24,000 nt of DNA, taken from assembly GCA_027065235.1 (NCBI GenBank), contig JAMOOR010000393.1:1-24000 (forward strand), given 5' to 3'. How positions within the stretch are numbered: position 1 is the stretch's first letter; each line of letters begins with the position of its first letter. The DNA comes from Thermotogaceae bacterium. Its GTDB lineage: Bacteria > Thermotogota > Thermotogae > Thermotogales > Thermotogaceae. The notes beneath the pieces are model-generated. The model saw only the letters and a program-made list of their open reading frames with translations, ran no database searches and was not told the DNA's origin. The position numbers and the translations under genes were made by a program. This document shows positions 1 through 21,071 of this stretch, piece by piece.

Positions 1-182
1 CAAGGATGGTTGGTGGAGGCTTTGGCGGCGGGATAATAGTCCTATCAAAGCCTGGTGAGATAGAAGAAGTTTACAGGGATCTTTCAAAGAAATACCACGA
101 AAAATTCGGCTTTCACCCACGTTTCATAGAAATTGATAGCGATGATGGCGGTAGGAGTATAACATCAAAGCGAAAACCATAA
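1..182 (+). CDS. C-terminal fragment of a GHMP-family sugar kinase (galactokinase-like); the 5' end lies outside the window
   Basis: Frame 3 is open from the window edge to TAA at 180-182. It reads RMVGGGFGGGIIVLSKPGEIEEVYRDLSKKYHEKFGFHPRFIEIDSDDGGRSITSKRKP. The GGGFGGG stretch fits GHMP kinase motif III (GAGFGGC in galactokinases). It is absent from the ORF track because it has no in-window start. Confidence 0.6.
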   Translation, partial: RMVGGGFGGGIIVLSKPGEIEEVYRDLSKKYHEKFGFHPRFIEIDSDDGGRSITSKRKP

Positions 183-237
183 GATGATATTCTGATCGCT
201 TTCAAGTTAAAAGTCCCACTACCTACAATAACAAAAA

Positions 238-254
238 GCCCCCTTGAAGGGGGC
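238..254. terminator. Intrinsic terminator hairpin between convergent genes (kinase fragment + / ferredoxin -)
   Basis: GCCCCC(238-243)-TTGAA-GGGGGC(249-254), a perfect 6-bp GC stem. The minus-strand reading is followed by TTTTTGTT, a good terminator for ferredoxin. The plus-strand T-run is weaker (AATACTTTTAT). Confidence 0.75.
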
Positions 255-275
255 AATACTTTTATACAAGATTTC

Positions 276-532
<257 letters not shown>

Positions 533-559
533 ATCAAATTCTCCTTTTTCAAAGTGTAA

Positions 560-565
560 ATTATA
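560..565 (-). promoter_or_regulatory. Candidate -10 box (TATAAT) of a ferredoxin-leader promoter
   Basis: The minus strand reads GGTTTGTGTATAATTTACAC, with a perfect TATAAT at 565..560 about 100 nt upstream of the fdx ATG. The -35 is poor (TCTTCA at 17-nt spacing). Confidence 0.3.
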
Positions 566-749
566 CACAAACCAGATGGATATGAAGATATTATTCTGTT
601 GATAAAAAGAGGGAACAGAAGGTAACACAGCTCTCATTTTCATGCCAAGATTCATATAAGTGCAATATACAAATATATGATATCACTCAAAGTGCCTTTA
701 TAAGTTTTTTCTCATACTCAATAAACTCTAAAAAATCACAGAAATTCCT

Positions 750-842
750 TCAATATCCTGCAAAATTTACCAATATGGCATTCATCCTAGTCAGCATCAC
801 AATTATTCCAAAAAGTATCACTATAAACGGGAGTATTTTCAT
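750..842 (-). CDS. Candidate 30-aa single-pass membrane micro-protein (MKILPFIVILFGIIVMLTRMNAILVNFAGY), below the ORF-track cutoff
   Basis: The ATG at 842 is preceded by GGGGTGATTTT, the same SD type as neighbouring genes. It lies 16 nt after the TAG of the 653-aa gene. It has a hydrophobic 18-residue core and ends at TGA 752..750. Confidence 0.35.
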   Translation of the reverse strand: MKILPFIVILFGIIVMLTRMNAILVNFAGY

Positions 843-858
843 AAAATCACCCCATAAG

Positions 859-2820
859 CTAAAAGCTGTAAAAGAATCCTACATCAACTTCAAAACTCCT
901 TGGATAACTCCAATAAACAAAACCCGATATACCCGCTGACTGAGGCTTGAATATTGTTTCATAAAACGGGTAGTTTATCTCAAGACCAACTTTAAAAGCA
1001 GCTGTGTATTCCTGCTCAGGGACTGACCCATAATCATCTTCCGATTCTTCATAAGGTAAGACAACCTCTAATGAAATCTTTGGAGCTACTGCTATGGATT
1101 TGTTAAACAAGATGTACCACTTTCCATATCCTCCCAACGCGTAACCATTCAAGGAGGCACCCAAGATCATGCCAAAGGAGAATTTTTTGTTTGCAAAGAG
1201 GTCGCGTTTTGTGTATCCGACTTCTGTGTAGATTTCATTTGAGTTCATATTGAGAGAAACATCCATGCCAAAAAATGGCTTATAATCAAAATCTTCCAAA
1301 GCATAGTTCCCCATTTTTATCTTTGAGCTTTTTTCTAAATACCGGATTATCCTAGACACAGAACTTTTTTCTTTAACACCTGTAACTTTCACATAACCTT
1401 GAGTAAATCCATCATCTATTATCCTAAAGTAATAGCCTCTTTTTACACCATAATTCTTTCCTGCACTTATCTCAACATTGCTCCCTTTAATACTGCTCAC
1501 TTTTGCCTCTATCGCAAAGAACCGTCTTACATAATCCGATATTTCTTTTCCAAGTTTCTCATAAGCACTCTCAATAACCTCTTCTTTGTATTCTCCACGG
1601 ATAGAGCCAAACCTATCCTCTCTTATGCTTTCAGGAGATTTTATAGAAATGGTGAATTTCTTTGCAATTTTTAAATTTCCATTCTTACCATCGATTACAA
1701 TCACTAAAGCATCGATGAAGTAAGAGTGAAATGAGACATTCTCTATAAATATATCGTTGAAGCTACCAGCAGATATGTACTCATCCTCAGTTGCCCATGC
1801 CCCTTTCTTTACTCTTACATATTCACCTTTTTTCCTATCAGGTATATATCTTCCTGATTTTAAATCGAACCTATAATATTCACCTGCATAAACGGGTGTT
1901 GTTCCTATGTATTCTCCGTTAACCGGGTTGGGAAATTTAAGGTATTCTGTAGATTCCACCAATTCATACCTACTGTCTAGTATCTTCACCACTACAAGGT
2001 ATCTTGCTGGTTTAAGATATGTTCCGACTTCTCCCCCCCCACTTATGAGGTCTTGATATTTCATCTCCTTAAATAGGTAATTCAAGTATGATCTATCGTA
2101 CATAGTGTATCTATCTTCCTCATAGAAATATTTTTTCACAAAGTTTCCAAGAGGAGAAAGGCTGCCTTCATAAAAAGCTATTGTGGGTTTTTCTGTATAC
2201 ATCTTTTCTTTTCTCAAATCTATTTTTATGTTGTTAAGGATATCCATGTAGGAACTTCCACTAAGGACAAAGCCTTTCTGAAATAAGATGAAAGACGTTT
2301 TGAAATCGATAAATGTCAGTGAGGCGTATAGCCAGTATCTTCTGTCACTCACATACTTTACAACTTTTCTATAAAAACCTGTATAATAGGTGTACTTTTC
2401 GTTTTCATCCCTTGCCCACACAAAATTCATGAGACGAACATAATTTCCATATCTATCTGGTACATACTTTTTCTTTTTATAGTCGTATTTGTACAGCGTG
2501 CGATAGGCCTTATAGTAAGATCCAGCATATCTTACATAGCTCCCATTTTTGTCATCCCTGACAAAAACTACTTTCTTAAATCCTCTTTTACTTTCTTTGA
2601 AATCAGTTATATGAAAAATTAGTCCATATCTTGCCGGCCTTTCATTGGGATCCAACTTAAAAGCTTCAGCGGAATTTATAAGTATCTTTTTAATACCCTC
2701 TCCTATACTTTCTGGTATGGAAAGCGATTTGTCCTTCATAACAATTATTCTTACTCCAGTTGAAAATTCCATAATCGTTATAAGTAACATGACCAATACA
2801 ATTAACCGGGGCTTCACCAT
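859..2820 (-). CDS. Hypothetical exported envelope protein (653 aa). N-terminal signal/anchor, two Tyr/Lys-rich 'ARY...NG.Y...Y(K/R)(Y/F)D..K.(G)RY(V/I)PDR..G.YVR' modules, an SH3-like 'FAIEAKV..I.G..V.I.AG...GV..G' module, and a beta-barrel-like C-terminus ending ...VGFFYSF
   Basis: Long ORF with a strong SD (GGGGGTGATC, 6 nt before the ATG). The ATG overlaps the upstream stop (ATGGTGA). N-terminus MVKPR + LIVLVMLLITIM. The C-terminal ~140 aa show alternating hydrophobic/aromatic strands and a terminal Phe, as in OMP barrels. It is a paralogue of the upstream gene. I recognise no characterised family. Confidence 0.85.
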   Translation of the reverse strand: MVKPRLIVLVMLLITIMEFSTGVRIIVMKDKSLSIPESIGEGIKKILINSAEAFKLDPNERPARYGLIFHITDFKESKRGFKKVVFVRDDKNGSYVRYAGSYYKAYRTLYKYDYKKKKYVPDRYGNYVRLMNFVWARDENEKYTYYTGFYRKVVKYVSDRRYWLYASLTFIDFKTSFILFQKGFVLSGSSYMDILNNIKIDLRKEKMYTEKPTIAFYEGSLSPLGNFVKKYFYEEDRYTMYDRSYLNYLFKEMKYQDLISGGGEVGTYLKPARYLVVVKILDSRYELVESTEYLKFPNPVNGEYIGTTPVYAGEYYRFDLKSGRYIPDRKKGEYVRVKKGAWATEDEYISAGSFNDIFIENVSFHSYFIDALVIVIDGKNGNLKIAKKFTISIKSPESIREDRFGSIRGEYKEEVIESAYEKLGKEISDYVRRFFAIEAKVSSIKGSNVEISAGKNYGVKRGYYFRIIDDGFTQGYVKVTGVKEKSSVSRIIRYLEKSSKIKMGNYALEDFDYKPFFGMDVSLNMNSNEIYTEVGYTKRDLFANKKFSFGMILGASLNGYALGGYGKWYILFNKSIAVAPKISLEVVLPYEESEDDYGSVPEQEYTAAFKVGLEINYPFYETIFKPQSAGISGFVYWSYPRSFEVDVGFFYSF

Positions 2821-4088
2821 GATAGATCACCCCCAAAAGCCACTCCATTCGTGGATAATGCAACGTACGGATTCAGATTGAAAAATGAAAATCCACCGTA
2901 AATGCAATAGTTGTCTATAGATGAAGTGAATCCTATAAAGAAGTTTCCAAAAACACGGGCTCTAAAATCTACACCATAATTTATCTTACCTTTAAAGGGA
3001 TCATAGGAGATGAAAGAAGAGCCCGATGCCCTTTCCCTCCAATGGAGATCGATGATTCTTATTCCTAATGAAAGATATGCTCCGTTAAAAGTGGAGTAAC
3101 CAACACCAATATGAAGAAAAGAAGGGAATTTAAAATTTTGATTTTCTTTGAGCTCTTTTACGCTTTCCAATGGCACATCAGAAAGCTTTATAACCTCTGC
3201 TTCCGCCGAATCTTGTGTAACTTCCCTGACCATGAAAATATTTCCATTTCCCTCGAAAACCATTCCAGGTTTGATTCCTTCCTCTTTACCTTTATCTATT
3301 ATAACTATCATATCTTTTGCTTTTACAACTTCCGCCTCTATAGTGAACTTCTTCTTTAAATCGCTCAATACTTTCTTTGAAAGCTCTTCTGCAACCTCAC
3401 TTGTCCAGAGCTTTTCGTTATCATAATGTTTTATAAGATGTTTATTTAAACCATCATATGTATAGTAAACTCTTCTCCTTTTTAAGTCCTTTTTGAAATC
3501 ACCGCTGAGTTTTTTTTCAGTTCCATGATAGAGCACGTAACTGGCATTTATTTTTATTTCTACCCAGATTTCGTCAACGGGCAGCTTTCTATAAAAGTCC
3601 CCGGAGTAATAGTAGTATTTCCCATCAACCGATCTAACATATCTTCCCTCATCGTTAAGAATGTATCTTCCCTTTGAATAATCGTATTTGTACCATTTTC
3701 CCACGTATACCTTTATGAATTTCCCGTTAATCAATATGTAGTCGCCATTTTCATTGTCTTTTAGATATATCTTTCTCTTTTTAAACGTTTTTATGGAAAA
3801 GTTTTTTATGTTTAAAACCATCCTATATTCCGCATCCTTAAAGGTACCCGCCAAAAGATCCTCTGATGTGAAAAGATCCTGAAAGTTAACCTCTTTGAAT
3901 ACAACCTTAAAGGCTTCGGAAAAGTAAATATAAAATCTCTCCGAGTCGGTAATGCTGGATAGGGTGTAACCCTTTGCCACATCTGCCATCTGTCCAGAAC
4001 CAGAGAAGAGAAGTTGAACATAGGGTTTTGAGATTAAAATTGAAGCGGTCAAAATCAAGAAAACCAAGAGAAAAAATTTTCTCACCAC
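2814..4088 (-). CDS. Hypothetical exported envelope protein, shorter paralogue of 859-2820. It has one Tyr-rich module, an SH3-like 'FTIEAEVV...IDKGKEEGIKPG' module, and a beta-barrel-like C-terminus ending ...GGDLSW
   Basis: The ORF-track start is a TTG at 4103. GAGGGGG at 4102-4096 looks like the SD, so GTG at 4088 (or 4085) is the likelier start, giving MVRKFFLLVFLILTASILIS (n-region + h-region). Module, SH3-like and C-terminal regions align by eye with the downstream protein. Confidence 0.85.
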   Translation of the reverse strand: MVRKFFLLVFLILTASILISKPYVQLLFSGSGQMADVAKGYTLSSITDSERFYIYFSEAFKVVFKEVNFQDLFTSEDLLAGTFKDAEYRMVLNIKNFSIKTFKKRKIYLKDNENGDYILINGKFIKVYVGKWYKYDYSKGRYILNDEGRYVRSVDGKYYYYSGDFYRKLPVDEIWVEIKINASYVLYHGTEKKLSGDFKKDLKRRRVYYTYDGLNKHLIKHYDNEKLWTSEVAEELSKKVLSDLKKKFTIEAEVVKAKDMIVIIDKGKEEGIKPGMVFEGNGNIFMVREVTQDSAEAEVIKLSDVPLESVKELKENQNFKFPSFLHIGVGYSTFNGAYLSLGIRIIDLHWRERASGSSFISYDPFKGKINYGVDFRARVFGNFFIGFTSSIDNYCIYGGFSFFNLNPYVALSTNGVAFGGDLSW

Positions 4089-4108
4089 TATCAACCCCCT
4101 CAATTTGA

Positions 4109-4136
4109 AGTATACTATTCAATTGTGTTGACTCAA
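4109..4136 (-). promoter_or_regulatory. Candidate sigma70-type promoter for the 2814-4088 / 859-2820 operon
   Basis: The minus strand reads TTGAGT (4136..4131), a 16-nt spacer, then TATACT (4114..4109). The -10 lies ~20 nt upstream of the proposed start. Confidence 0.4.
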
Positions 4137-4152
4137 AAAGGGGTGATTTTTT

Positions 4153-4671
4153 GTGATAATTGCAATAACTGGAAAACCTGGAAGCGGAAAGACTACGATA
4201 GTTAAAGAAGTCGTGAAAAGAATTGGAGGAGTTGGATTTTACACGGAAGAAGTTAGAAAAGAAGGAAAAAGAATAGGATTTATGGCTGTGACTTCATGGG
4301 ATGAAAAAACTTGGATAGCAAAGGTTGGAACCGCCGGAGAAAAGAAGGTAGGGAAATACACCGTGCTTGTGGAGAATTTTGAAAACAAAGTGGTGAAGAA
4401 ACTGATATCAGAGATGAAAAAAGAAAGGCTGATATACATTGACGAAATAGGAAAGATGGAGATGCTATCGAATGAATTTAAAAAGATGGTTGGAGATATG
4501 CTGAACATGAAAAAGCTATTCATAGTGACCGTTCCTGTTAAAAACTTCAACCATCTTGTAAGAAAGGTCAAAGAAAAGGCAACTCTCATCATAGACGCTT
4601 GGGATTACTGGGATAACAAGGAAAAGGCTGTTGAAACTATAATTCAAGTAATTAAGTCTTCAAGTGTTTAA
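4153..4671 (+). CDS. THEP1-type nucleoside-triphosphatase (NTPase_1 family)
   Basis: GTG start with SD AAGGGGTGA 6 nt upstream. Walker A ITGKPGSGKTT sits at the extreme N-terminus and Walker B-like IYIDEIGKME follows. The ~170 aa size is typical of the Aquifex THEP1 family. Confidence 0.8.
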   Translation: MIIAITGKPGSGKTTIVKEVVKRIGGVGFYTEEVRKEGKRIGFMAVTSWDEKTWIAKVGTAGEKKVGKYTVLVENFENKVVKKLISEMKKERLIYIDEIGKMEMLSNEFKKMVGDMLNMKKLFIVTVPVKNFNHLVRKVKEKATLIIDAWDYWDNKEKAVETIIQVIKSSSV

Positions 4672-4727
4672 AACAATCCTTGTTTAGAAATAAATCATTC
4701 TAAAAGAATCCACCCAAGTTAACAAAA

Positions 4728-4749
4728 AAGCCGGCAAGAACGCCGGCTT
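4728..4749 (-). terminator. Intrinsic terminator after the epimerase gene
   Basis: AAGCCGGC-AAGAAC-GCCGGCTT. The minus-strand reading is followed by TTTTTTGTT directly after the TAG stop at 4752..4750. Confidence 0.8.
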
Positions 4750-5685
4750 CTACCTTTCCATTTTCTTTTTAAACCACTCAACCGTTTTTTTCAATCCTTC
4801 TTCAAGACTCACTTTTGGAGTCCAATTAAGAACCTTTGCTGCCTTTGAAACATCGAGGATGCTCTTTCTTAAATCTCCAGGTCTTGGCGGAGCGTATACA
4901 GGATCCTTTTCATAGCCAGTTATTTCCTTCAGCATTCTGAAAAGCTCATTGACAGTGGTCCCCTTTGATGTACCTATGTTGACAATTTCTCCATCAGCCT
5001 TATCCATAGCAGCCATGTTGGCTTCTACAACATCCCCAACAAATACATAGTCTCTTACATATTCTCCATCACCAAATATTTTGACTTCTTCGTTCTTAAG
5101 CATCCTCTCAGTAAATATAGCTACAACTCCTGCTTCTCCATAAGGATCCTGCTTTGGTCCATATACATTGCCGTACCTTAGAATTGTGTATCTCAGTCCG
5201 AATTCATGATTGAAGAATCTAAGATAGTTTTCCACGGAGAATTTAGCTATACCGTAGGGCGATATCGGTTTTGGGAACTCCGTTTCTGGAGTGGGAATCT
5301 TGGAAACTTCGTCTCCGTATATAGCCCCTCCAGTTGACGAGAAAATGAACTTCTCGACACTATACTCAACAGAAAGCTTGAGTAAATTCAGGGTACCAAT
5401 TATGTTTACATTTGCATCAAAGTCCGGTTCTCTAACAGACCTCGAAACACTTGCTTGAGCCGCTAGATGGAAAACATATCTAGGTTTGTGAAGCATAAAA
5501 ATTCTTTTGAGCATTTCTACGTCGGTTATATCATGTTCATAAAACAATACCTCTTGGGATAAATTCTCAACCTTTCCAGTTGAAAGATTATCTACAACTA
5601 TTACTCCCTCGCCCAATTCAGTAAGCTTTTCAACAAGGTTGGAGCCGATAAAACCGGCCCCACCCGTTACTAAGATATTACTCAT
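4750..5685 (-). CDS. galE: NAD-dependent NDP-sugar epimerase, extended SDR family (UDP-glucose 4-epimerase-like)
   Basis: TGGAGFIGS Rossmann motif, catalytic YGIAK (YxxxK) and ~311 aa. I moved the start to ATG 5685 (MSNILVTGGAGFIGS), which sits 1 nt after the upstream TAA and has GAGGTGAGGAG upstream. The ORF-track start at 5724 overlaps the preceding gene. Confidence 0.8.
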   Translation of the reverse strand: MSNILVTGGAGFIGSNLVEKLTELGEGVIVVDNLSTGKVENLSQEVLFYEHDITDVEMLKRIFMLHKPRYVFHLAAQASVSRSVREPDFDANVNIIGTLNLLKLSVEYSVEKFIFSSTGGAIYGDEVSKIPTPETEFPKPISPYGIAKFSVENYLRFFNHEFGLRYTILRYGNVYGPKQDPYGEAGVVAIFTERMLKNEEVKIFGDGEYVRDYVFVGDVVEANMAAMDKADGEIVNIGTSKGTTVNELFRMLKEITGYEKDPVYAPPRPGDLRKSILDVSKAAKVLNWTPKVSLEEGLKKTVEWFKKKMER

Positions 5686-12276: not shown

Positions 12277-15200
12277 TCACTTCTTTTTTATGTTGATGGC
12301 ATCTTTGTAAATAGATCTCAAAGCTTCTGTATAGTCAACTTCTGCTTTTTCCACCTTATCCATCATTTCCTCAAGTTTTCTTGTAGTCTTATCAGTGACA
12401 AACTTCGTGTAATTTTCCTTTAGAAATCTATAAACCTTTCTTCCCAAAGCAGTTGGCCAAAGTCTGCTGTATTTGTCTTCCTTCACATATCCCCTTTTGA
12501 AGAGTATTTCTATGATTTTAGCATAGGTAGAGGGCCTTCCGATCTTTCTGTTTTTCATCTCCTCTATTATCTTTGCCTGAGTGTACAAAGGGACGGTATG
12601 TTTCTTGTAATGCTTTATATCTTCAACTTCTATCCATCCAGCTTTATAGCAGAACGTTTCCACAGGTTTTATAAGATTCCATCCGCCCTCTATTATCTCT
12701 TTGATAACCTCATCTTCAATTTGGGTATTGCCAAATTGCAGGGTTACCTTTTGCTTTTTAACCTTCACAGCCTTTGCTTGACTTTGAAGAAATCTTTCAT
12801 AAATCATTTTGTATACGTTTATGTGTTTTCTGGTTATGCCTTTCAAAATTCCCTCGTAAACCATCTCTTCTATTTCATCAGGTGACACAGCTTTTGCGGG
12901 TCTTATAGCTTCGTGGGCTCCTTCACCACCACTGGTCCAGTCTCTTCCTCTATATATATCCGACAACTTCAACCTTTCAAAGATCCTTTTTGCAATAACC
13001 TTTCCCACATCAGATATCCTTGTAGAATCCGTCCTATGGTAGGTTATGAATCCATACTCGAAAAGTTCCTGAAGGATATTCATTATCTCAACAGCAGAAT
13101 ACCTGTACCTTGATGATATCTCAGTGAGGACGGAATCCGTCGTATAGGGAGGCAAAGGATTTAGTGTATCCTCAAACTCTTCTTTTATGTCTACAAAAAC
13201 TCTTCTCTCTTCTATCTTTCCCTCAACTTCAATTTTTCTTCCATTTATTATAAAACTCGTGAACTGCTTTTCACTGTCTTTATATTCTTTTTCTCTTTCT
13301 ACAATCCAGCCAAGTACCGTACTCTGAACCCTACCTGCAGACAATTGTTTATTCTTGAACCTCTGCTGTACAACTTGGGACAGTTCAAATCCAACCCATC
13401 TGTCCTGAATCCTTCTTACAACCTGGGCTTCAACAAGATTTTCATCGTAGCTTCTTGGAGATTGGAACCTTTTTTTAAACTCCTGCCTGGTTATCTCATG
13501 AAGTTCCACTCTCTTTACATTCTCATTAACAGGCTTTAGATACTGGATAACATCGTAGGAAATTTTTTCTCCCTCCGTGTCTGGATCTGTGGCTACAAAA
13601 ACTTCATCTACTTCCAAAGCTATGTCTCTCAAACTCTTCACAGCATCTGTTTTATCATCTATATCCTCTGATCCGCATCTTGGACAAACAGAACTTTCAG
13701 TTGTGAATTGATACCCGCAGCTTCTGCACCTTTTAATTGTTGTATAAACCGGTGTGAAAGTTCCGTCCACCTTAACCCCATGAAATCCTTCATCCGTTAC
13801 TAAATCATAAACATGACCTCTTGTTGCAGTGAAGATAACAATATTTCCATCATAGACTGACTCGTATGCGATAATTCCCTCGTACTTCCTTGAAGAAGAT
13901 CTACCAAAAAACGATGAGATGGTAGCAGCCTTTGTGGGTGATTCTACGATGAAGAGAACGGACTTAAAGTCGATTTTTTCTGCACTCTCATTCTGTCTTG
14001 TCATAACGACTTCTTCCATTTCTTTGTCCCAATCTACTTCTTCAAAATCTTTCCAATCCTCTTCAACGAGCCATTCCAATCTTTCCTTCAAAATTTCAAA
14101 AAGTTTATCGTTGTCTTCAAGAAGTACTGAAATCCCTTTAGTCAATCCTCCTTTTGCGAACCTTGACGCTCTTCCAGAACCTTGGATATATGTAAGCACA
14201 TCGGGTATTAAAACTTTATTATCCTTTATCTCAAACTTTGAAAACACCTCTTTTGCTTTCTCAAGCCATTCTTTATCATCTATTGGGAGCTTCTTTCTAA
14301 ATTCATCTATATCTTTCACTTTATCGGCGGAGTAAAACAACTTTCTAAAAGTATCCCCTCTATCTAAAAACTCCCTCAAAACCTTCTTTATTACAAATTT
14401 TGAAGCCTTCTCCTTTTCCAAACTGAATTCAAAATGGGGAGTTCCATAAAATACAACCGCCTTTACCCTCTCTGGCATGTCTATTCCTCTAACCAGCTTT
14501 CCGTAATAGCTGCTTACCCCTGCAACTACACTTATTTTCCCTTCTTTAAACTCGTCCATCACCCTTTCTTCAGAGGAAAGAACACTTTCTATGCTGTATC
14601 CTTCTTCTTTGAGTTTCTTTACAACTTCTGACAGCTCATCTTTTGTGTTAAAAAATACAATCACACCGTCTTTTAAAATATCAAGAATTTCTTTAAGGCT
14701 TTCAAAATCTTTCGACTTGATCCTAACGTTGGTTATATTCCTACTACTTACAACAAGACTGCCTATATCAAAGCCAAGAATTTCTCTAAACAGAAGGTGC
14801 CTTAATCCCTTCGGTTTTGCCGTAGCGGAAGAAACCACCAAGACCCCTGTCTTTTCTACATTTATCTTTTCTTTCCCTTTACCTAAGATATTCTTGTAAG
14901 CCCTTTCTATCGTTTTTTCATCAACACCAAGGAGCATCAAAATCCTGTCAATATTCTTCGAAGACTTAAGGATCGCATCAACATCATCTACAAATACGAA
15001 ATCAAATCTTTTATCCTTTAAATATTCAAAATTCCTTGAAATGAACTGCGTGGACACAACAAGGACACTGAAGTTACCCTCTTTTATTTTTTCAAGAACC
15101 TCTTTTTTCTCCTTTGATGACATTTTAGAGGTATATTTTAGAGAATCTTTCGAACCAAGGGACCTCAATCTATCATAAACCTGATCCACTAGAAGAACTG

Positions 15201-15591
15201 TTGGCAAGACTATCAAGGATCTCTTCTTCTTTTCTTCAAAATAAAGAGAAGTTAGGATGCCGAACGTAGTCTTCCCCATTCCGGTCGGTGCAATCGCTGT
15301 AAAACTCTTGTTTAAAAGCACCCTCTTAATCCATAACCTTTGAAAACCATTGGGTGGTGTCTTGAGTTTTTCTTCAAAAAAGCTCTCAACTTCCTTGTAT
15401 CTTTCCCTGAATTCATAAAGACGTTTATAATCCTTTATTTTGCCGCTACTTACCAGATATTCGTACACATTTACATTTAAATCTTCCTCTGGAAGACACA
15501 CCTTACATGGAAGCCCTTTCAAATTTCTAACATCTGTATTCTTGCCGCCACAATTTATACAGGAATGATGGAACTCCAAGCCTATAGCCAA
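12277..15591 (-). CDS. rgy: Reverse gyrase (helicase-like domain fused to type IA topoisomerase)
   Basis: 1104 aa. N-terminal Zn finger CINCGG...CKVC, helicase motifs APTGMGKTT / VDDVD, TOPRIM ESPTKA and DPDTEGE, internal Zn ribbon CRSCG...CPRCG, and catalytic Tyr context ITYHRTDS. Confidence 0.97.
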   Translation of the reverse strand: MAIGLEFHHSCINCGGKNTDVRNLKGLPCKVCLPEEDLNVNVYEYLVSSGKIKDYKRLYEFRERYKEVESFFEEKLKTPPNGFQRLWIKRVLLNKSFTAIAPTGMGKTTFGILTSLYFEEKKKRSLIVLPTVLLVDQVYDRLRSLGSKDSLKYTSKMSSKEKKEVLEKIKEGNFSVLVVSTQFISRNFEYLKDKRFDFVFVDDVDAILKSSKNIDRILMLLGVDEKTIERAYKNILGKGKEKINVEKTGVLVVSSATAKPKGLRHLLFREILGFDIGSLVVSSRNITNVRIKSKDFESLKEILDILKDGVIVFFNTKDELSEVVKKLKEEGYSIESVLSSEERVMDEFKEGKISVVAGVSSYYGKLVRGIDMPERVKAVVFYGTPHFEFSLEKEKASKFVIKKVLREFLDRGDTFRKLFYSADKVKDIDEFRKKLPIDDKEWLEKAKEVFSKFEIKDNKVLIPDVLTYIQGSGRASRFAKGGLTKGISVLLEDNDKLFEILKERLEWLVEEDWKDFEEVDWDKEMEEVVMTRQNESAEKIDFKSVLFIVESPTKAATISSFFGRSSSRKYEGIIAYESVYDGNIVIFTATRGHVYDLVTDEGFHGVKVDGTFTPVYTTIKRCRSCGYQFTTESSVCPRCGSEDIDDKTDAVKSLRDIALEVDEVFVATDPDTEGEKISYDVIQYLKPVNENVKRVELHEITRQEFKKRFQSPRSYDENLVEAQVVRRIQDRWVGFELSQVVQQRFKNKQLSAGRVQSTVLGWIVEREKEYKDSEKQFTSFIINGRKIEVEGKIEERRVFVDIKEEFEDTLNPLPPYTTDSVLTEISSRYRYSAVEIMNILQELFEYGFITYHRTDSTRISDVGKVIAKRIFERLKLSDIYRGRDWTSGGEGAHEAIRPAKAVSPDEIEEMVYEGILKGITRKHINVYKMIYERFLQSQAKAVKVKKQKVTLQFGNTQIEDEVIKEIIEGGWNLIKPVETFCYKAGWIEVEDIKHYKKHTVPLYTQAKIIEEMKNRKIGRPSTYAKIIEILFKRGYVKEDKYSRLWPTALGRKVYRFLKENYTKFVTDKTTRKLEEMMDKVEKAEVDYTEALRSIYKDAINIKKK

Positions 15592-16752: not shown

Positions 16753-16829
<77 letters not shown>

Positions 16830-16834
16830 CACCC

Positions 16835-16911
16835 TGGGGTGGCCAGTGGGATTCGAACCCACGACCACCTGATCCACAGTCAGGCGCTCTACCAGCTGAG
16901 CTATGGCCACC
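16835..16911 (-). tRNA. tRNA-His (anticodon GTG) with genome-encoded G-1, CCA encoded
   Basis: G(-1)-GTGGCCA-TA-GCTC-AGCTGGTA-GAGC-G-CCTGA-CT[GTG]GA-TCAGG-TGGTC-GTGGG-TTCGAAT-CCCAC-TGGCCAC-C-CCA. Confidence 0.9.
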
Positions 16912-16919
16912 ACAAATAG

Positions 16920-16993
16920 CGCGCCCGGTGGGAGTCGAACCCACAGCCCTCGGATTAGAAATCCGATGCTCTATCCTATTGAGCTACGGGCGC
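16920..16993 (-). tRNA. tRNA-Arg (anticodon TCT), no encoded CCA
   Basis: GCGCCCG-TA-GCTC-AATAGGATA-GAGC-A-TCGGA-TT[TCT]AA-TCCGA-GGGCT-GTGGG-TTCGACT-CCCAC-CGGGCGC-G, followed by CTATTT. Confidence 0.9.
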
Positions 16994-17013
16994 TTTCAAA
17001 GACCCAATATAAA

Positions 17014-17089
<76 letters not shown>

Positions 17090-17098
17090 CCGCTTCAC

Positions 17099-17174
17099 TG
17101 GTCGGGGAGAGAGGACTTGAACCTCCGGCCTCCTGCTCCCAAGGCAGGCGCGCTCCCACCTGCGCTACTCCCCG
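17099..17174 (-). tRNA. tRNA-Pro (anticodon TGG), CCA encoded
   Basis: CGGGGAG-TA-GCGC-AGGTGGGA-GCGC-G-CCTGC-CT[TGG]GA-GCAGG-AGGCC-GGAGG-TTCAAGT-CCTCT-CTCCCCG-A-CCA. Confidence 0.9.
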
Positions 17175-17529: not shown

Positions 17530-19242
17530 TTATAGTGTATCAACCTGAATTTTTACATTCTTTCCACAAAACGCTATTCCAAAGCCGATTACCTTGTAAC
17601 CTAATCTTTGCATTTTTGCATAATATTTCCTTTCCTTTATTTGCTTTAGGGCTTCTTTGGCTTTTTCTTCTAATTCCTTTTCGTCGTCAGACTTTTTTAC
17701 CTCAAAAATCGCCGCATACTGCCCATAGTTTTTGTCCTTAGGATATACCACAACATCAAGTCTGCCGTATCCTGACTCCCTCTCACTTCCTACCACATAC
17801 CCATTCACAGTTATAGCAAGCATTCCGAGCAGGAAGCCCTTGTAGAATCTTTCGCTTTCGTCCTTTGCAACATCGTAGTAGCTAAGACCATCTATCAAAA
17901 ATTCTGTGAGCCACCCGGCAAATTCTTTATACTCTCCTCTTTTCAGCATGCTGCTTATTTTGTCTGCTACACTGCTACCATCTATACCGGTTTTTTCTTT
18001 TATCCATTCTATCACTGTACCTTTGAAAAATCTCATCACCTCTTCATTCGGTATTCTCAAGTAAAAATTTTCTGCCTCTCCACTGTCATAGTTGTATCTC
18101 GGTGATAAGTAGCCACTGCTGGCAAAAAGCACCCATACACCACTTTCATTCTTCTCAAGCTCTATAAGGGATATCGATGTATCAAGTGTTTTGTTTATTT
18201 CCTCTCCTTTGATCAGTTCAAGTAACTCATTGTGAACTTCCTTGTTGTTAATTACCTGATCTTTGATAAGCTGGTTTTCAGATGTAAAAATCCAATATTT
18301 TTTAGCATGAGCGATGGGAGGCCTTTTCGAATTTATTCTTTCACTTACATAGTTAACAACACTCCATGGATTATAAAGGTTATGAGCTTCGCCTACGATA
18401 TACCCGCTGTACCATTTATCTATTATTTCTTTATCTTCCTTTGTAAGGTTATAGTAAAAGATCATTTCATTTACTTCGTCCTCTGTAAAGCCAAATTTAT
18501 CATCCATTCCCTCATTAAAAACTGTGTACACGGCAAGATTATTGAGTCCGGAGAATATCGATTCCTTAGCTATTCTGTATACACCTGTAAGCACTCCAAA
18601 TTCCAAATATTCGTTATCTTTGAGAGCTGCCGTGAGAAGGTTCCTCATGAAAGCTACCATGTTGTCGTAGTAGTCTTTGTCCTTCTTTTCGTATGTATAT
18701 GCCGCTTCTATTGGAACATCGTATTCGTCAATGAGAAGTATAGTTCTCCTTCCATATGCATCATAATACATCCTCGTAAGAGCTTTTAAATACAGGAAGT
18801 ATTCTTCTATATTCAACTTTCTATAAGCAATACCCTCTAAGTATTTTCTGTCTTCTTTTTTTATAAGCTTATTCTGTAAGTGTTCTTTCGCATTCTCGGA
18901 GAATAGCGCCATCATATGGGCTTTAGCGCTCTCCCATGTCATATCTTTTATCTCTTTAAATGTGATGAAAACAATCGGATATTTGTGATAATAATCCTTT
19001 ACTATCCCCGTTTCTTCCCATATCTTAAACCCGTTAAACAGTTCTTCTTTTTTATTCAAAGAGAAAAACTCTTGTAGCATTTTCATGTTCAAAGTTTTTC
19101 CGAAGCGTCTTGGACGAGTGATAAGCTTTACCTTACCCGGAAGGTCTATTATGTCTTTTATTAGCAGGGTTTTATCGACATAGTAGTAATTACCTTTTAT
19201 CATTTCTGAGAACTCGCTTATCCCTATTGGGAGTTTCTTCAC
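17530..19242 (-). CDS. AAA-ATPase-like N-terminal domain fused to a C-terminal PD-(D/E)XK nuclease-like domain (Pfam AAA-ATPase_like + PDDEXK_9 / former DUF1703 architecture); function unknown
   Basis: The N-terminus LPIGISEFSEMI..NYYYVDKT....RPRRFGKTL is the hallmark opening of this family. The C-terminus ESGYGRLDVVVYP.....AAIFEVKK gives the D...E.K core. GTG start with GAGGTGA 6 nt upstream. Confidence 0.8.
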   Translation of the reverse strand: MKKLPIGISEFSEMIKGNYYYVDKTLLIKDIIDLPGKVKLITRPRRFGKTLNMKMLQEFFSLNKKEELFNGFKIWEETGIVKDYYHKYPIVFITFKEIKDMTWESAKAHMMALFSENAKEHLQNKLIKKEDRKYLEGIAYRKLNIEEYFLYLKALTRMYYDAYGRRTILLIDEYDVPIEAAYTYEKKDKDYYDNMVAFMRNLLTAALKDNEYLEFGVLTGVYRIAKESIFSGLNNLAVYTVFNEGMDDKFGFTEDEVNEMIFYYNLTKEDKEIIDKWYSGYIVGEAHNLYNPWSVVNYVSERINSKRPPIAHAKKYWIFTSENQLIKDQVINNKEVHNELLELIKGEEINKTLDTSISLIELEKNESGVWVLFASSGYLSPRYNYDSGEAENFYLRIPNEEVMRFFKGTVIEWIKEKTGIDGSSVADKISSMLKRGEYKEFAGWLTEFLIDGLSYYDVAKDESERFYKGFLLGMLAITVNGYVVGSERESGYGRLDVVVYPKDKNYGQYAAIFEVKKSDDEKELEEKAKEALKQIKERKYYAKMQRLGYKVIGFGIAFCGKNVKIQVDTL

Positions 19243-20078: not shown

Positions 20079-20119
20079 CACCTCACGAAAAATATTATAG
20101 ACCAATTACCATACCGTTG

Positions 20120-20128
20120 TGGTATATT
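20120..20128 (+). promoter_or_regulatory. Candidate extended -10 (TGgTATATT) for apt
   Basis: TGG TATATT at 20120-20128, ~38 nt upstream of the apt ATG. The -35 is weak (TAGACC, 19-nt spacing). It sits in the 60-bp divergent gap next to an ATACC-GTTGT-GGTAT inverted repeat (20111-20125). Confidence 0.3.
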
Positions 20129-20166
20129 ACCCTATGTGTGAAGAAATCGTAAAAGGGGGTAGAGGA

Positions 20167-20679
20167 ATGGACATTAAAAAATTCATAAGAGATATACCAG
20201 ACTTTCCAAAGGAAGGGATAATTTTTAAAGATATAACACCGCTTCTTAAGGATAAAGACGCGTTTAGAGAGACGATAGATCAGCTTTGTAAAAAGGTAAA
20301 GGATCTGAATTTTGATCTGATAATAGCACCAGAGGCAAGAGGATTCATCCTTGGTTCTGCCATGGCTTACAAATTGGGAAAGGGTTTTGTTCCTGTTAGA
20401 AAACCTGGAAAACTTCCATATAAAACAGTCTATGAGGAATTTCAACTTGAATATGGAACCGATCAGCTCCATATACATGTAGATGCTGTTGAAAAGGGCC
20501 AGAATGTTCTCATAGTTGATGATGTCTTAGCTACCGGTGGAACAGCCAAAGCCCTTGCCAACCTTGTGGAAAAGGTTGGAGGAAATGTTGCTGGAATGAT
20601 ATTTTTAATAGAACTTTCCTTCCTTAATGCAAGGGAAAAACTGCAAGGCTACTGGGTTGAATCGCTCATCGAGTTTTGA
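20167..20679 (+). CDS. apt: Adenine phosphoribosyltransferase
   Basis: [27 protein letters not shown] and PRPP-binding [13 protein letters not shown]. The ATG at 20167 is preferred over the ORF-track GTG at 20119, giving a canonical Apt N-terminus with purine-rich AAGGGGGTAGAGGA upstream. Confidence 0.9.
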
Positions 20680-21071
20680 ACAGGTTTTAAAGAAAGAGAA
20701 ACGAAATCACCTTCGAAGTTTAGATCGAAAATAACGAATCTTTTCAGTAGAGAGAACATTTTAGATGGGAAGACATAAAGCTTCCCATCTTTTATTTCAA
20801 AAGATTTGCTTGAGTAGCCTTTTATTATATTCATTACGAGTTTGTTGGTCTTTATTTCAAAAATTATCGGATCGTCGGGAGATTCTTGAACCTTGGACAA
20901 GGCAAGCCTCACAGACACAGGTATTTTCAACATCCCCATCAATTTCCCAGTTATCACTATATTCACCGACTTTCCCTCTGGTTCAACTGTCATGTTATCA
21001 ACATCTGTTATGTCCTTGAAAAACTTAGATATCAAATTGTTCCCTATTTTAACCTCTATGTGATCACTCAC
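20649..21071 (-). CDS. Hypothetical small beta-rich protein (~140 aa), no signal peptide, translationally coupled to the upstream PBP-fold gene
   Basis: The preferred start is GTG 21071, with AAGGAGGT 8 nt upstream. It overlaps the upstream TGA (GTGAGTGA). The ORF-track ATG at 21104 is the alternative. I recognise no family. Confidence 0.6.

Follow-up and report, generated by a model that had tools for sequence, protein, structure and literature searches.

Two large, adjacent genes, here called A and B, in a 24-kb stretch of DNA (the window) from a heat-loving Thermotogaceae bacterium encode paralogous exported proteins that are remote, heavily modified members of the CsgG/FlgT superfamily. 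The reading we favor, to which we give a probability of about one half, is that A and B are translationally coupled outer-membrane (toga) proteins forming an oligomerizing scaffold, and that their family is a small, previously unannotated branch of this superfamily restricted to the Thermotogota. The features of the locus are collected in Table 1; all three ORFs (A, B and a micro-ORF) lie on the minus strand.

Table 1. Features of the A/B locus, in positions of the window; folds, barrels and arms are as predicted
Feature	Position	Strand	Remarks
Promoter match, sigma-70-like	4109..4136	-	TTGAGT-16-TATACT, immediately upstream of A; consensus match only
Shine-Dalgarno of A	4094..4101	-	GAGGGGGT; 5 nt ahead of GTG 4088
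ORF A	2814..4088	-	424 aa; signal peptide, 1 CsgG-like domain with Tyr-rich beta-arm, small FlgT-C-like barrel, C-terminal 8-stranded barrel ending GGDLSW
Signal peptide of A	4029..4088	-	aa 1-20, MVRKFFLLVFLILTASILIS then KPY; no lipobox Cys
Tyr-rich insertion (beta-arm) of A	3567..3779	-	about aa 104-174; seven consecutive G-x-aromatic turns, flanking strands 22-25 residues
Helix + small barrel of A	3144..3416	-	aa 225-315; long helix then FlgT-C/TsaP/MreC-type barrel, F.IEA.V...G...G.K.G motif
Outer-membrane barrel of A, 8 strands	2817..3116	-	aa 325-424
Shine-Dalgarno of B	2827..2834	-	GGGGGTGA; within codons of A's conserved C-terminal GG-D (dual coding)
A/B start/stop overlap	2814..2820	-	ATGGTGA, exact; A ends TGG TGA, B begins ATG GTG
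ORF B	859..2820	-	653 aa; signal peptide, 2 tandem CsgG-like domains each with Tyr-rich beta-arm, small FlgT-C-like barrel, C-terminal 8-stranded barrel ending GFFYSF
Signal peptide of B	2761..2820	-	aa 1-20, ...ITIMEFS then TGVR; no lipobox Cys
Tyr-rich insertion 1 of B	2371..2568	-	about aa 85-150; 21% Tyr
Tyr-rich insertion 2 of B	1750..1935	-	about aa 296-357; insertion relative to CsgG/HfaB short form
Helix + small barrel of B	1291..1587	-	aa 412-510; long helix then small FlgT-C-like barrel
Outer-membrane barrel of B, 8 strands	862..1266	-	aa 519-653; matches OprF-N 4RLC, minimal OmpA-type platform 2JMM
Micro-ORF	750..842	-	30 aa, hydrophobic, MKILPFIVILFGIIVMLTRMNAILVNFAGY; SD GGGGTGA at 853-847

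The overlap of the two large ORFs is exactly as a preliminary description of the locus had reported. ORF A is listed with a TTG start (4103-2814, 429 aa); the GTG at 4088 is the likelier start codon, because it agrees with the database protein P0001 and with the N-termini of the homologues. The statement that all three ORFs use the same GGGGTGA-type Shine-Dalgarno sequence holds for the micro-ORF and B, whereas that of A is similar but not identical. The region as a whole has no more sigma-70-like matches than would be expected from shuffled sequence.

The pair was found in every related locus examined: A and B are adjacent in six of six further Thermotogota loci, where the flanking genes are unrelated. 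The overlap is kept as ATGGT(G/A)A in four of these (L013, Fervidobacterium L003, Thermosipho L010 and the MAG locus L005), and a gap of 10-12 nt separates the two genes in Tepiditoga (L011) and Petrotogaceae (L012). Chance is excluded for the ORF pair, which is kept in different genera and has homologues with E values as low as 1e-278. The family comprises 40 representatives among 1.84 billion, all annotated as hypothetical, and no paper in the literature mentions the locus tags of its members. Among the named cluster members, for which some representatives were looked up, no homologue from Thermotoga, Kosmotoga or Mesotoga was seen; should this absence hold, the pair would not be common to all togas.

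A and B are related to each other (BLASTP E = 5e-10, 26% over 245 aa), and the first Tyr-rich module of B matches A separately (E = 2e-4), indicating that the module is present twice in B. Each N-terminus combines a basic n-region with a hydrophobic core and small residues, followed by a conserved KPY in A or (T/A)GVR in B. Tyrosine accounts for 7.3% of A and 9.8% of B, compared with 4.4% in 15 other ORFs of the window, and it reaches 20-21% inside the modules. The last residue is W in A and F in B, and one or the other ends every other A-type or B-type member checked, except P0008 (M). Paralogy, signal-like N-termini, Tyr richness and terminal aromatic residues had all been described before; these observations are confirmed as real, the translational coupling of two exported paralogues is supported, and the interpretation built on them is supported in part.

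Neither protein had been placed in a characterized family, and neither passes any Pfam threshold; nonetheless, Foldseek and hhalign revealed remote homology to CsgG and FlgT. For the AlphaFold2 models (pLDDT 84.5 for A and 84.2 for B), the best Foldseek matches are FlgT 3W1E and the 8Z5N LPHT ring (E 1e-7 to 5e-7, probability 1.0), followed by the CsgG pre-pore 4UV2 (E about 4e-3, probability 1.0), and MreC is also among the matches for A. Identity to FlgT and CsgG is 9-13%, with global TM-scores of 0.13-0.27 that are low because the domain arrangement differs. In hhalign, the short form of the "CsgG/HfaB family" from Thermosipho and Fervidobacterium aligned with the A family at 97.9% probability (E = 3.9e-13) and with the B family at 98.0% (E = 1.8e-13). 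This short form passes Pfam CsgG (28.6 bits versus a cutoff of 20.8), and distant relatives carry Pfam CsgG/LpoB and FlgT_C. The domain order given in the preliminary description is matched by the AlphaFold secondary structure, but its helix linker is actually the helix that closes the CsgG-like domain, and its SH3-like segment is a small barrel of the kind found in FlgT-C, TsaP and MreC. Among solved structures, the best matches of a pooled profile of this small barrel were MreC 2J5U (E = 3.9e-4) and TsaP 3JC8 (E = 6.6e-3).

The closeness to known systems differs from domain to domain. The alpha/beta domain of A and B is homologous to that of the CsgG/HfaB family (PF03783; hhalign 98%, E~1e-13 to the short form), and the short form (about 392-396 aa) likewise runs from a CsgG-like domain through a helix and a small barrel to a C-terminal segment whose last residue is F. 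FlgT of the Vibrio flagellar H-ring (PDB 3W1E, 8Z5N) also has an alpha/beta domain followed by a C-terminal small beta-barrel (FlgT-C), and is itself periplasmic, outer-membrane-associated and ring-forming. Unlike A and B, FlgT is soluble, is 377 aa long, has a distinct N-domain, lacks a membrane barrel and a Tyr-rich arm, and is encoded among flagellar genes; identity is 9-12%, and neither A nor B passes the Pfam FlgT profiles. TsaP, the type IV pilus secretin-associated protein, and MreC have only one small domain in common with A and B, the barrel after a long helix: TsaP has an N-terminal LysM domain and neither a CsgG-like domain nor a membrane barrel, and MreC is held in the inner membrane through an N-terminal helix with a coiled coil.

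The layout had been likened to an inverted OmpA, in which the periplasmic part comes first and the barrel lies at the C-terminus, and the models agree with this. AlphaFold predicts eight C-terminal strands in each protein, most of which alternate hydrophobic and polar residues (dyad hydrophobicity), and the C-terminal part of B matches OprF-N 4RLC and the OmpA-type 2JMM with TM-scores, normalized to the target, of 0.58 and 0.50, respectively; Pfam OMP profiles matched neither A nor B. The predicted eight antiparallel strands within the last 100-135 aa, their dyad hydrophobicity and the terminal aromatic residue recall the N-terminal barrels of OmpA and OprF, whereas the order is reversed and the OmpA_C peptidoglycan-binding domain is lacking in A and B.

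The Tyr-rich modules, each about 60-70 aa long, are a clean insertion in the hhalign comparison with the CsgG/HfaB short form. The insertion site appears to be the turn where CsgG carries its first membrane hairpin, the position of which we take to follow the numbering of Goyal et al. 2014. Judged from predicted secondary structure alone, the module would form a soluble long beta-sheet arm, whose long strands contain many Lys, Arg, Asp and Glu residues and have no dyad hydrophobic pattern. The G-x-aromatic motif is enriched in both proteins (11 versus 2.9+-1.6 in A, 14 versus 4.5+-2.0 in B), and the invariant module residues are mainly Gly, Tyr and Trp.

Homology to the CsgG superfamily, the apparent position of the insertion, and the fact that CsgG oligomerizes prior to insertion (PMC4389571) could suggest a secretion channel, in which long hairpins from many subunits would form a large beta-barrel pore exporting a polymer across the toga. 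This is very improbable, as the charged arm strands have no alternating hydrophobic face, A and B are each already predicted to be anchored by an 8-stranded barrel of their own, and no csgE/F/A/B-like substrate or accessory genes occur near the pair. Furthermore, the lipoprotein CsgG of E. coli uses its two amphipathic hairpins to form a nonameric pore with 36 strands, whereas A and B have no lipobox, would be anchored by their own barrel, carry the charged arm at the apparent first-hairpin site and, in the case of B, have two tandem domains.

The most likely function is instead that of a co-translated, toga-anchored periplasmic scaffold that oligomerizes through its arms. A Sec signal peptide would export each protein, and the C-terminal barrel with its terminal aromatic residue would insert it in the outer membrane, standing in for the lipid anchor used by CsgG. 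Because the predicted strand number is even, the remaining chain would stay periplasmic. In this part, CsgG/TolB-N-like alpha/beta domains (one in A, two in B) would precede a long helix and the small barrel, and each alpha/beta domain would bear a Tyr/Lys-rich insertion at the CsgG-first-hairpin-like turn that lengthens the flanking strands to about 25 residues and is tipped by short G-x-aromatic hairpins. The conserved start/stop overlap points to A and B being made in equal amounts, and they would therefore probably assemble as a hetero-oligomer at the inner surface of the toga. Elsewhere in the superfamily, rings are knitted together by hairpin insertions, as in the CsgG barrel, the disk rings of FlgP and the ring of FlgT. 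The most likely role of the arms is therefore to make beta-sheet contacts between subunits, and the resulting ring or lattice would act as a scaffold or reinforcement for a structure of the outer membrane.

In the FlgP/Lpp20/FlgT fold family, ring oligomerization correlates with a beta-hairpin insert (PMC12222027); the FlgT ring has C26 symmetry, and TsaP, with two FlgT-C-like domains, has been modeled as a heptamer in the spoke density around the PilQ secretin. The basal-disk proteins FlgP and Lpp20 of the LPP20 family resemble A and B in principle, rather than through demonstrated homology to FlgP, in that a small alpha/beta fold forms rings through a long beta-hairpin insert and a continuous intersubunit sheet (PMC12222027). 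FlgP differs in being a lipoprotein of about 11.5 kDa with a hairpin extending 35 A, shorter than the roughly 25-residue strands predicted in A and B.

The preliminary description had suggested a toga tether or surface assembly, which is possible. As a tether between the outer membrane and cell-wall or other glycans, the barrels would be embedded in the toga, and the arms would use the aromatic G-x-Tyr hairpins of their tips to bind peptidoglycan or a periplasmic or surface polysaccharide, akin to choline- or glucan-binding hairpin repeats, thereby setting the spacing between toga and cell body. The short aromatic periodicity of the modules, a faint Choline_bind_3 match (E = 0.04), the conservation of mainly Tyr, Trp and Gly, and the small barrel common to TsaP, which is predicted to bind peptidoglycan, point this way, as do the glycan-assembly genes adjoining the pair in Fervidobacterium and Thermosipho (a Wzy_C protein of 1070-1091 aa, Glycos_transf_4 and PIG-L) and an epimerase gene near it in the window. 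We nonetheless consider a tether unlikely: this neighborhood is not kept beyond the Fervidobacteriaceae, no LysM, OmpA_C, SLH or other known wall-binding domain was detected, and the need for two coupled paralogues is left unexplained. The analogy with choline-binding repeats lacks significant profile support, since the Choline_bind_3 match reaches 14 bits, far under the cutoff of 27. The short G-x-aromatic periodicity is real, despite this insignificant match.

Taken together, the neighboring genes in the window and the related loci give no consistent functional hint. In Thermosipho, a CsgG-type protein (the short form) is encoded directly downstream of the pair, and an LPP20-domain lipoprotein also follows in the same gene block; LPP20 is the Pfam family of FlgP, and the arrangement recalls the FlgT/FlgO/FlgP H-ring set of Vibrio. 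In one MAG, fliR-flhB-flhA-flhF-flhG-pilZ lie about 2 kb downstream, and upstream of the pair there is an MCP gene in Petrotogaceae and GGDEF genes in two lineages. With FlgT as the best structural match of both proteins and the small barrel common to TsaP, A and B might thus form a collar of a trans-envelope machine, namely an outer-membrane-associated ring, as FlgT and TsaP do. It would encircle the flagellar rod or LP-rings, as a counterpart of the H-ring or basal disk, or else a pilus or a secretion pore. Such a collar is decidedly unlikely: neither flagellar nor pilus genes occur in the 24-kb window, the promoter candidate is of the sigma-70-like kind, and motility genes are linked to the pair in a single lineage, with pgk-tpi in between. 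Furthermore, Thermotoga is flagellated but is not among the genera of the named members, and the same fold serves non-flagellar systems (CsgG, LpoB, MreC).

The micro-ORF had been counted as part of the module. Among the loci examined, it recurs only in the closest relative (78% identity), and it is a lineage-specific add-on outside the conserved pair.

The two genes lie on the minus strand, with A directly ahead of B, and are coupled through their sequence (positions are collected in the table below). A is listed with a TTG start, and its real start is almost certainly the GTG at 4088, because the database copy of the protein (P0001, 100% identical) is 424 aa long and its homologues begin MKK…; the sequence GAGGGGGT is found five bases 5' of this GTG. 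The 3' end of A reads …GGT GAT CTA TCA TGG TGA and the 5' end of B ATG GTG, and the heptamer ATGGTGA common to both is exactly the overlap noted in the preliminary description. The Shine-Dalgarno sequence of B, GGGGGTGA, falls within the codons for the conserved C-terminal Gly-Gly-Asp of A. The junction is thus a clean example of dual coding, in which the codons for the GG-D-x-x-W of A also provide the ribosome-binding site (GGGGGTGA) and the start codon of B. Immediately 5' of A there is a sigma-70-like match, TTGAGT-16-TATACT. No terminator-like site was predicted on the coding strand at either gene boundary, and the sole minus-strand match of this type lies within ORF A; the total of promoter- and terminator-like matches is not above shuffle expectation. 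No Rfam family reached the gathering threshold in positions 1-5000 of the window.

Positions of the genes, sites, predicted structural elements and neighbouring genes, and sizes of the related pairs (ORFs as in the ORF listing; aa, amino acids)
Feature	Sequence	Position	Strand	Remark
ORF A	window	4103-2814	minus	TTG start as listed, 429 aa
ORF B	window	2820-859	minus	ATG start, 653 aa
Micro-ORF	window	842-750	minus	30 aa
Micro-ORF counterpart	L013	7985-8077
Sigma-70-like match	window	4136-4109
Terminator-like match	window	3033-3017	minus	within ORF A
ATGGTGA overlap	window	2820-2814	minus
Shine-Dalgarno of B	window	2834-2827	minus	within A
Dual-coding stretch	window	2814-2834	minus
Most conserved stretch of A family	window	3837-3917	minus	A residues 58-84
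Predicted long strands	A model	88-112, 165-188, 191-212		after signal helix and beta-alpha-beta region
Predicted short hairpins	A model	117-160		flanked by the long strands
Predicted helix	A model	225-247		23 residues
Predicted small barrel	A model	251-315
Predicted eight strands	A model	325-423		C-terminal
Predicted module 1, long strands	B model	65-88, 150-172
Predicted module 2, long strands	B model	274-297, 354-377
Predicted helix	B model	412-435
Predicted small barrel	B model	438-509
Predicted eight strands	B model	519-652		C-terminal
A-B pair	L001-L004			Fervidobacterium, 459 + 674 aa
A-B pair	L005-L007			MAG lineage, 432 + 646 aa
A-B pair	L010			Thermosipho africanus, 416 + 599 aa
A-B pair	L011			Tepiditoga spiralis, 425 + 665 aa
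A-B pair	L012			Petrotogaceae, 437 + 663 aa
A-B pair	L013			78%-identity relative, 423 + 655 aa
Two further envelope genes	L010	9852-13105		T. africanus, after the pair
Two further envelope genes	L016	9001-12227		Thermosipho, after the pair
Wzy_C protein gene region	L004	778-6589
Wzy_C protein gene region	L001	1-3170
Wzy_C protein gene region	L016	2716-5928
Flagellar gene region	L005	10001-17941		MAG lineage, after the pair
Reverse gyrase	window	12277-15591	minus
Five tRNA genes	window	16753-17174	minus
AAA-ATPase-nuclease fusion	window	17530-19242	minus	predicted
Two ORFs	window	20095-21104	minus	127 and 151 aa

What had been noticed about the two proteins from sequence holds well: their paralogy, composition, repeat motif and signal peptides all bear it out. 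A and B align by BLASTP with E=5e-10 (26% identity over 245 residues), and the single module of A separately matches the first module of B (E=2e-4), from which it follows that B holds the module twice. Tyrosine makes up 7.3% of A and 9.8% of B, as compared to 4.4% in 15 neighbouring ORFs, and reaches 20-21% in the modules. There are 11 copies of the short motif G-x-(Y/F/W)-φ in A (2.9±1.6 in shuffles) and 14 in B (4.5±2.0), and seven of those in A follow one another at a period of 7-10 residues. Both N-termini (…ASILISKPY in A and …IMEFSTGVR in B) are organised like Sec signal peptides, in n-, h- and c-regions; small residues precede the conserved KPY (A) and (T/A)GVR (B), and no lipobox cysteine follows the hydrophobic core in A, B or their homologues.

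The family is small and confined, as far as its members carry names, to a few lineages. Only four A-type and five B-type proteins came out of a word-indexed search of 5.8 billion clusters, and a B-family profile run against all 1.84 billion representatives retrieved 40 proteins, comprising about 15 of B-type, about a dozen of A-type and a few distant relatives. The taxonomy was read from the cluster names, since a genome scan with a 5-sequence alignment had given two loci only. The named members come from Fervidobacterium, Thermosipho (africanus, japonicus, globiformans and affectus), Tepiditoga spiralis, Petrotogaceae MAGs and Thermotogaceae MAGs, the last being the closest named relatives of the window; neither Thermotoga, Kosmotoga nor Mesotoga appears among the representatives looked up, which were some of the 40 and included several without a name. 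All named members are annotated "hypothetical protein", with one UniRef label reading "Outer membrane protein", and their locus tags led to nothing in the experimental literature.

The pair behaves as a conserved unit: an A-type gene stands directly ahead of a B-type gene in all six further loci, with flanking genes that differ between lineages, and the pair is present as well on another Thermosipho contig (L016). The junction reads ATGGT(G/A)A in the window, the 78%-identity relative (L013), Fervidobacterium (L003), the MAG lineage (L005) and T. africanus (L010). In Tepiditoga (L011) and Petrotogaceae (L012) a gap of 10-12 nt separates the genes, both of which have a GGAGG-type Shine-Dalgarno. 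In the five overlapping cases the A-type protein ends in W (its TGG contributes the TG of the ATG of B), and in the two cases without overlap it ends in F. This conserved coupling points to co-translation in fixed proportion, and hence would favour a heteromeric complex.

The micro-ORF downstream of B, which the preliminary description had included in the module, does not share this conservation. It recurs only in L013, with equal length, an equal Shine-Dalgarno (GGGGTGA, seven bases ahead of the ATG) and 22 of its 30 residues identical, and is therefore placed outside the conserved module; of the six related loci examined, five (L003, L005, L010, L011 and L012) lack it behind the pair, and tblastn detected it nowhere else. 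The two copies differ at 28 nucleotides, of which 18 are third codon positions; 19 codons are affected, the stop codon among them, and 11 of these are synonymous. It is probably a genuine gene for a small hydrophobic membrane peptide, specific to this clade.

Direct profile searches placed neither protein. Nothing passed the threshold when A, B and the micro-ORF were scanned against Pfam and NCBIfam (for A and B this includes FlgT_N and FlgT_M as well as FlgT_C), PDB sequence profiles for each family in full brought up no significant match and did not retrieve FlgT, and Pfam CsgG (PF03783), missing from A and B, matched weakly in five of 16 B-type proteins (best 0.0017, below threshold). The connection comes through intermediates. 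In Thermosipho the gene that follows the pair encodes a 396-aa protein which passes Pfam CsgG (28.6 bits against a cutoff of 20.8) and whose orthologues in Thermosipho and Fervidobacterium bear the NCBI name "CsgG/HfaB family protein". This short form shares the helix and the small barrel, its C-terminal segment has F as its last residue, and it aligns by hhalign with the A family at 97.9% probability (E=3.9e-13, 261 columns) and with the B family, from module 2 onward, at 98.0% (E=1.8e-13). Among distant relatives retrieved with the B profile, Pfam FlgT_C falls exactly at the "F.IEA.V…G…G.K.G" segment in P0042 (30.9 bits, cutoff 27) and P0045, the latter having also an N-terminal CsgG/LpoB domain (8e-10 and 3e-9). 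FlgT_C is weak in one of 15 A-type proteins and in nine of 32 pooled domains (best 3.6e-4), and rises above the cutoff in the distant P0042 only. A pooled profile of 32 copies of the helix and small barrel, compared with solved structures, matched MreC (3.9e-4) and TsaP (6.6e-3); TsaP is reported to have two FlgT-C-like domains and has been modelled as a heptamer in the spoke density around the PilQ secretin. These alignments indicate kinship of A and B with CsgG at the superfamily level rather than membership of the family.

The structure predictions agree with this kinship. AlphaFold2, run on alignments of 15-16 sequences, gave a mean pLDDT/pTM of 84.5/0.66 for A and 84.2/0.71 for B. In a Foldseek search of the PDB the first match for both was FlgT (3W1E; 4e-7 for A and 2.9e-7 for B, probability 1.0), with whose combination of an alpha/beta part and a C-terminal barrel the models agree, together with the LPHT-ring chain 8Z5N_0 (5e-7 and 1e-7, probability 1.0). 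The 3W1E and 8Z5N_0 matches align over about 350 columns, and the low global TM-scores (0.13-0.27) are due to a different arrangement of the domains and to arms that have no counterpart. The CsgG pre-pore (4UV2, E about 4e-3, probability 1.0) came next, and A matched in addition MreC (2J5U, 3e-4) and the N-terminal barrels of F1/V1-ATPase subunits. The earlier statement that the proteins could not be placed beside any characterised family must therefore be revised: A and B are most like the FlgT, CsgG and TsaP-type outer-membrane-associated scaffolds, yet stand outside those families.

Each protein is predicted to end in eight strands of 7-18 residues (pLDDT mostly 70-93), most of which alternate strictly between a hydrophobic face (0.75-1.0) and a polar one (0-0.33), as in LHIGVGYS (1.00 versus 0.00) and EVDVGFFYS (0.20 versus 1.00). 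Of the A-type and B-type members checked, all have W or F as their last residue apart from P0008, where it is M. The C-terminal part of B resembles the N-terminal 8-stranded barrel of OprF (4RLC) and the minimal OmpA-type platform 2JMM, with TM-scores normalised to the target of 0.58 and 0.50, respectively; Foldseek gave no specific barrel match of comparable quality for A, and Pfam OMP profiles matched neither protein. Since the strand number is even, both barrel ends would lie on one side of the membrane, by analogy with OmpA the periplasm, so that the N-terminal modules are predicted to be periplasmic. The models thus uphold the inverted-OmpA layout proposed before, a periplasmic part followed by an outer-membrane barrel. 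The paper on the toga proteome of T. maritima lists six uncharacterised putative OMPs and mentions nothing CsgG-like or FlgT-like.

One stretch of the A model stands apart. Residues 58-84 have pLDDT below 50, the sole long low-confidence region, and this region is overlapped by the most conserved stretch of the A family (DSERFYIYFSEAFKVIFKEV.FQD.FTSE), whose counterpart in the alignment with the CsgG-type short form is the helix-strand motif "R..L..I.KER.L". This stretch may serve as an interaction surface and become ordered only within a complex.

The Tyr-rich modules are among the features that set the pair apart from its relatives. When both families are aligned with the short form by hhalign, the module is a clean insertion at the hairpin turn between …LTELTSNYEKNG and YTASLRLSLKLYDLKTGELL. 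By inspection, the equivalent turn in E. coli CsgG lies between IMVEGSIIGYESN and DQIAVNLRVVNVSTGEIL, at the place of segment VKSGGVGARYFGIGADTQYQL. This segment we take to be the first membrane hairpin of CsgG. A direct hhalign comparison of the short form with E. coli CsgG was too weak to count (probability 0.4%), with the expected "NLRVVNVSTGEILSS / SLKLYDLKTGELLAS" strand aligned, and it is from this alignment, the Pfam hit and inspection that the insertion site appears equivalent to the CsgG hairpin. Whereas each CsgG subunit contributes two amphipathic membrane hairpins and carries a lipobox cysteine, A and B lack that cysteine and have a charged insertion at the apparent turn of the first hairpin; the arm strands show no hydrophobic/polar alternation and are rich in Lys, Arg, Asp and Glu. 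A CsgG-like pore, for which the position of the arms might be taken to speak, is highly improbable given this charge and the separate barrel anchor, and neither the window nor the related loci examined contain curli-type substrate or accessory genes.

Proteins with this class of fold typically assemble into rings, and the arms are best read as oligomerisation elements on that ground. CsgG forms an octameric or nonameric ring in which the hairpins build the pore (PMC4389571), FlgT a C26 ring, and FlgP concentric rings by means of a 35-Å beta-hairpin insert, with which the subunits build one continuous sheet between them; in that family the formation of rings correlates with the presence of the insert (PMC12222027). 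By this reasoning A and B would form a hetero-oligomer beneath the toga, with the long soluble arms at the CsgG-like hairpin turn as oligomerisation elements whose aromatic tips could also bind a ligand; we give this reading a probability of about 0.5, its structural and architectural side being much firmer than the ring.

The same aromatic tips might instead bind peptidoglycan or polysaccharide and make the pair a tether. The G-x-aromatic periodicity suits such a role, as do the genes for Wzy_C, GT4 and PIG-L proteins that neighbour the pair in Fervidobacterium and Thermosipho, but that glycan-gene neighbourhood is not kept elsewhere and no known wall-binding domain was detected. The likeness to choline-binding repeats, seen by eye in the preliminary description, shrinks to a faint match: the isolated modules, scanned at E<=10, gave Choline_bind_3 alone, in one of the three, at a non-significant E=0.04 and 14.3 bits (cutoff 27), far too little to support the choline-binding reading. 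The tether is for us a doubtful alternative. Somewhat less likely still is a collar of a flagellum or pilus, an idea that draws on FlgT and TsaP as nearest relatives, on the Thermosipho block of two FlgT-like, one CsgG-type and one LPP20-type lipoprotein gene, which recalls FlgT/FlgO/FlgP, and on fliR-flhB-flhA-flhF-flhG-pilZ downstream in one MAG. However, that MAG is the only case with fliR-flhB-flhA nearby, the Thermosipho block has no motility genes, the window has no flagellar or other motility genes, the promoter match is sigma-70-like, and no homologue was seen in flagellated Thermotoga among the named members.

The hetero-oligomer can be carried further, to an assembly of A and B in 1:1 ratio as a large periplasmic ring or lattice, hung from the toga by dozens of small barrels in place of lipid anchors and joined by an intersubunit beta-sheet of Tyr-rich arms. 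This is speculative and rather unlikely. If true, the flagellar H-ring/basal disk or the CsgG collar would have in it a counterpart anchored by barrels, and the adjacent CsgG-type and LPP20-type proteins of Thermosipho would form further rings. Thermotogota are commonly regarded as deep-branching among diderm bacteria, and outer-membrane-associated ring scaffolds of the CsgG/FlgT/FlgP type would then be ancient and not a proteobacterial invention.

The combination itself appears new: a predicted barrel anchor that replaces the lipid anchor, a Tyr-rich arm of 60-70 aa that is inserted in the alpha/beta domain and of which B has two, and an obligate, overlapping A-B pair; no annotation or paper describing it was found. 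The toga is among the least understood bacterial outer envelopes, with few proteins identified (Omp-alpha, Omp-beta, BamA and some putative OMPs), and the pair adds to this list a lineage-restricted, conserved two-gene module. Seen as an insertion-bearing relative of CsgG and FlgT with a predicted barrel anchor, it gives two "hypothetical proteins" a hypothesis that can be tested, a hetero-oligomeric ring or lattice under the toga, and carries a superfamily so far met mainly in the curli secretion and flagellar rings of proteobacteria into a distant phylum with a new, predicted mode of anchoring. The pair thereby offers specialists of the envelope and of the flagellar motor a concrete object in a poorly known envelope.

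Several metagenomic proteins outside the named Thermotogota members (P0038, P0040, P0042/P0098, P0043 and P0045, the P0042 and P0045 clusters including Tara Oceans sequences) are distant relatives that combine a CsgG/LpoB-like domain at the N-terminus with one or two FlgT_C-like barrels and a strand-rich C-terminal segment whose last residue is F; they lack a lipobox. Like the pair, this wider CsgG/FlgT_C architecture with a barrel anchor appears to be uncharacterised.

The neighbourhoods of the pair vary. In Thermosipho (T. africanus and L016, the contig that carries the T. melanesiensis-type protein P0106) two further envelope genes follow it. The first encodes a CsgG-domain protein of 394-396 aa without the Tyr-rich insertion, whose C-terminal segment closes with F; Fervidobacterium islandicum has the CsgG-type gene on its own. 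The second encodes a protein of 676-682 aa, which in L010 is a lipoprotein, its lipobox reading LFSC, that carries an LPP20 domain (26.7 bits, cutoff 25.9) and is not a B-type paralogue (hhalign probability 0.3%). A Wzy_C protein of 1070-1091 aa, O-antigen ligase/polymerase-like, adjoins the pair in Fervidobacterium and Thermosipho; in the former its gene is accompanied by Glycos_transf_4 and esterase genes, and a PIG-L deacetylase gene lies directly upstream of the A-type gene. This neighbourhood may be a link to envelope glycan assembly or inherited synteny. In the MAG lineage (L005) the pair is followed by pgk and tpi and then by fliR, flhB, flhA, flhF, flhG and a PilZ gene; upstream of the pair there are GGDEF genes in L005 and L011 and an MCP gene in L012.

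Elsewhere the window contains, besides two ORFs (127 and 151 aa) that match nothing in Pfam, housekeeping genes, a reverse gyrase, which is a hyperthermophile marker, a cluster of five tRNA genes (Arg-TCG, His, Arg-TCT, Gly-TCC and Pro-TGG) and a predicted AAA-ATPase fused to a PD-(D/E)XK nuclease domain.
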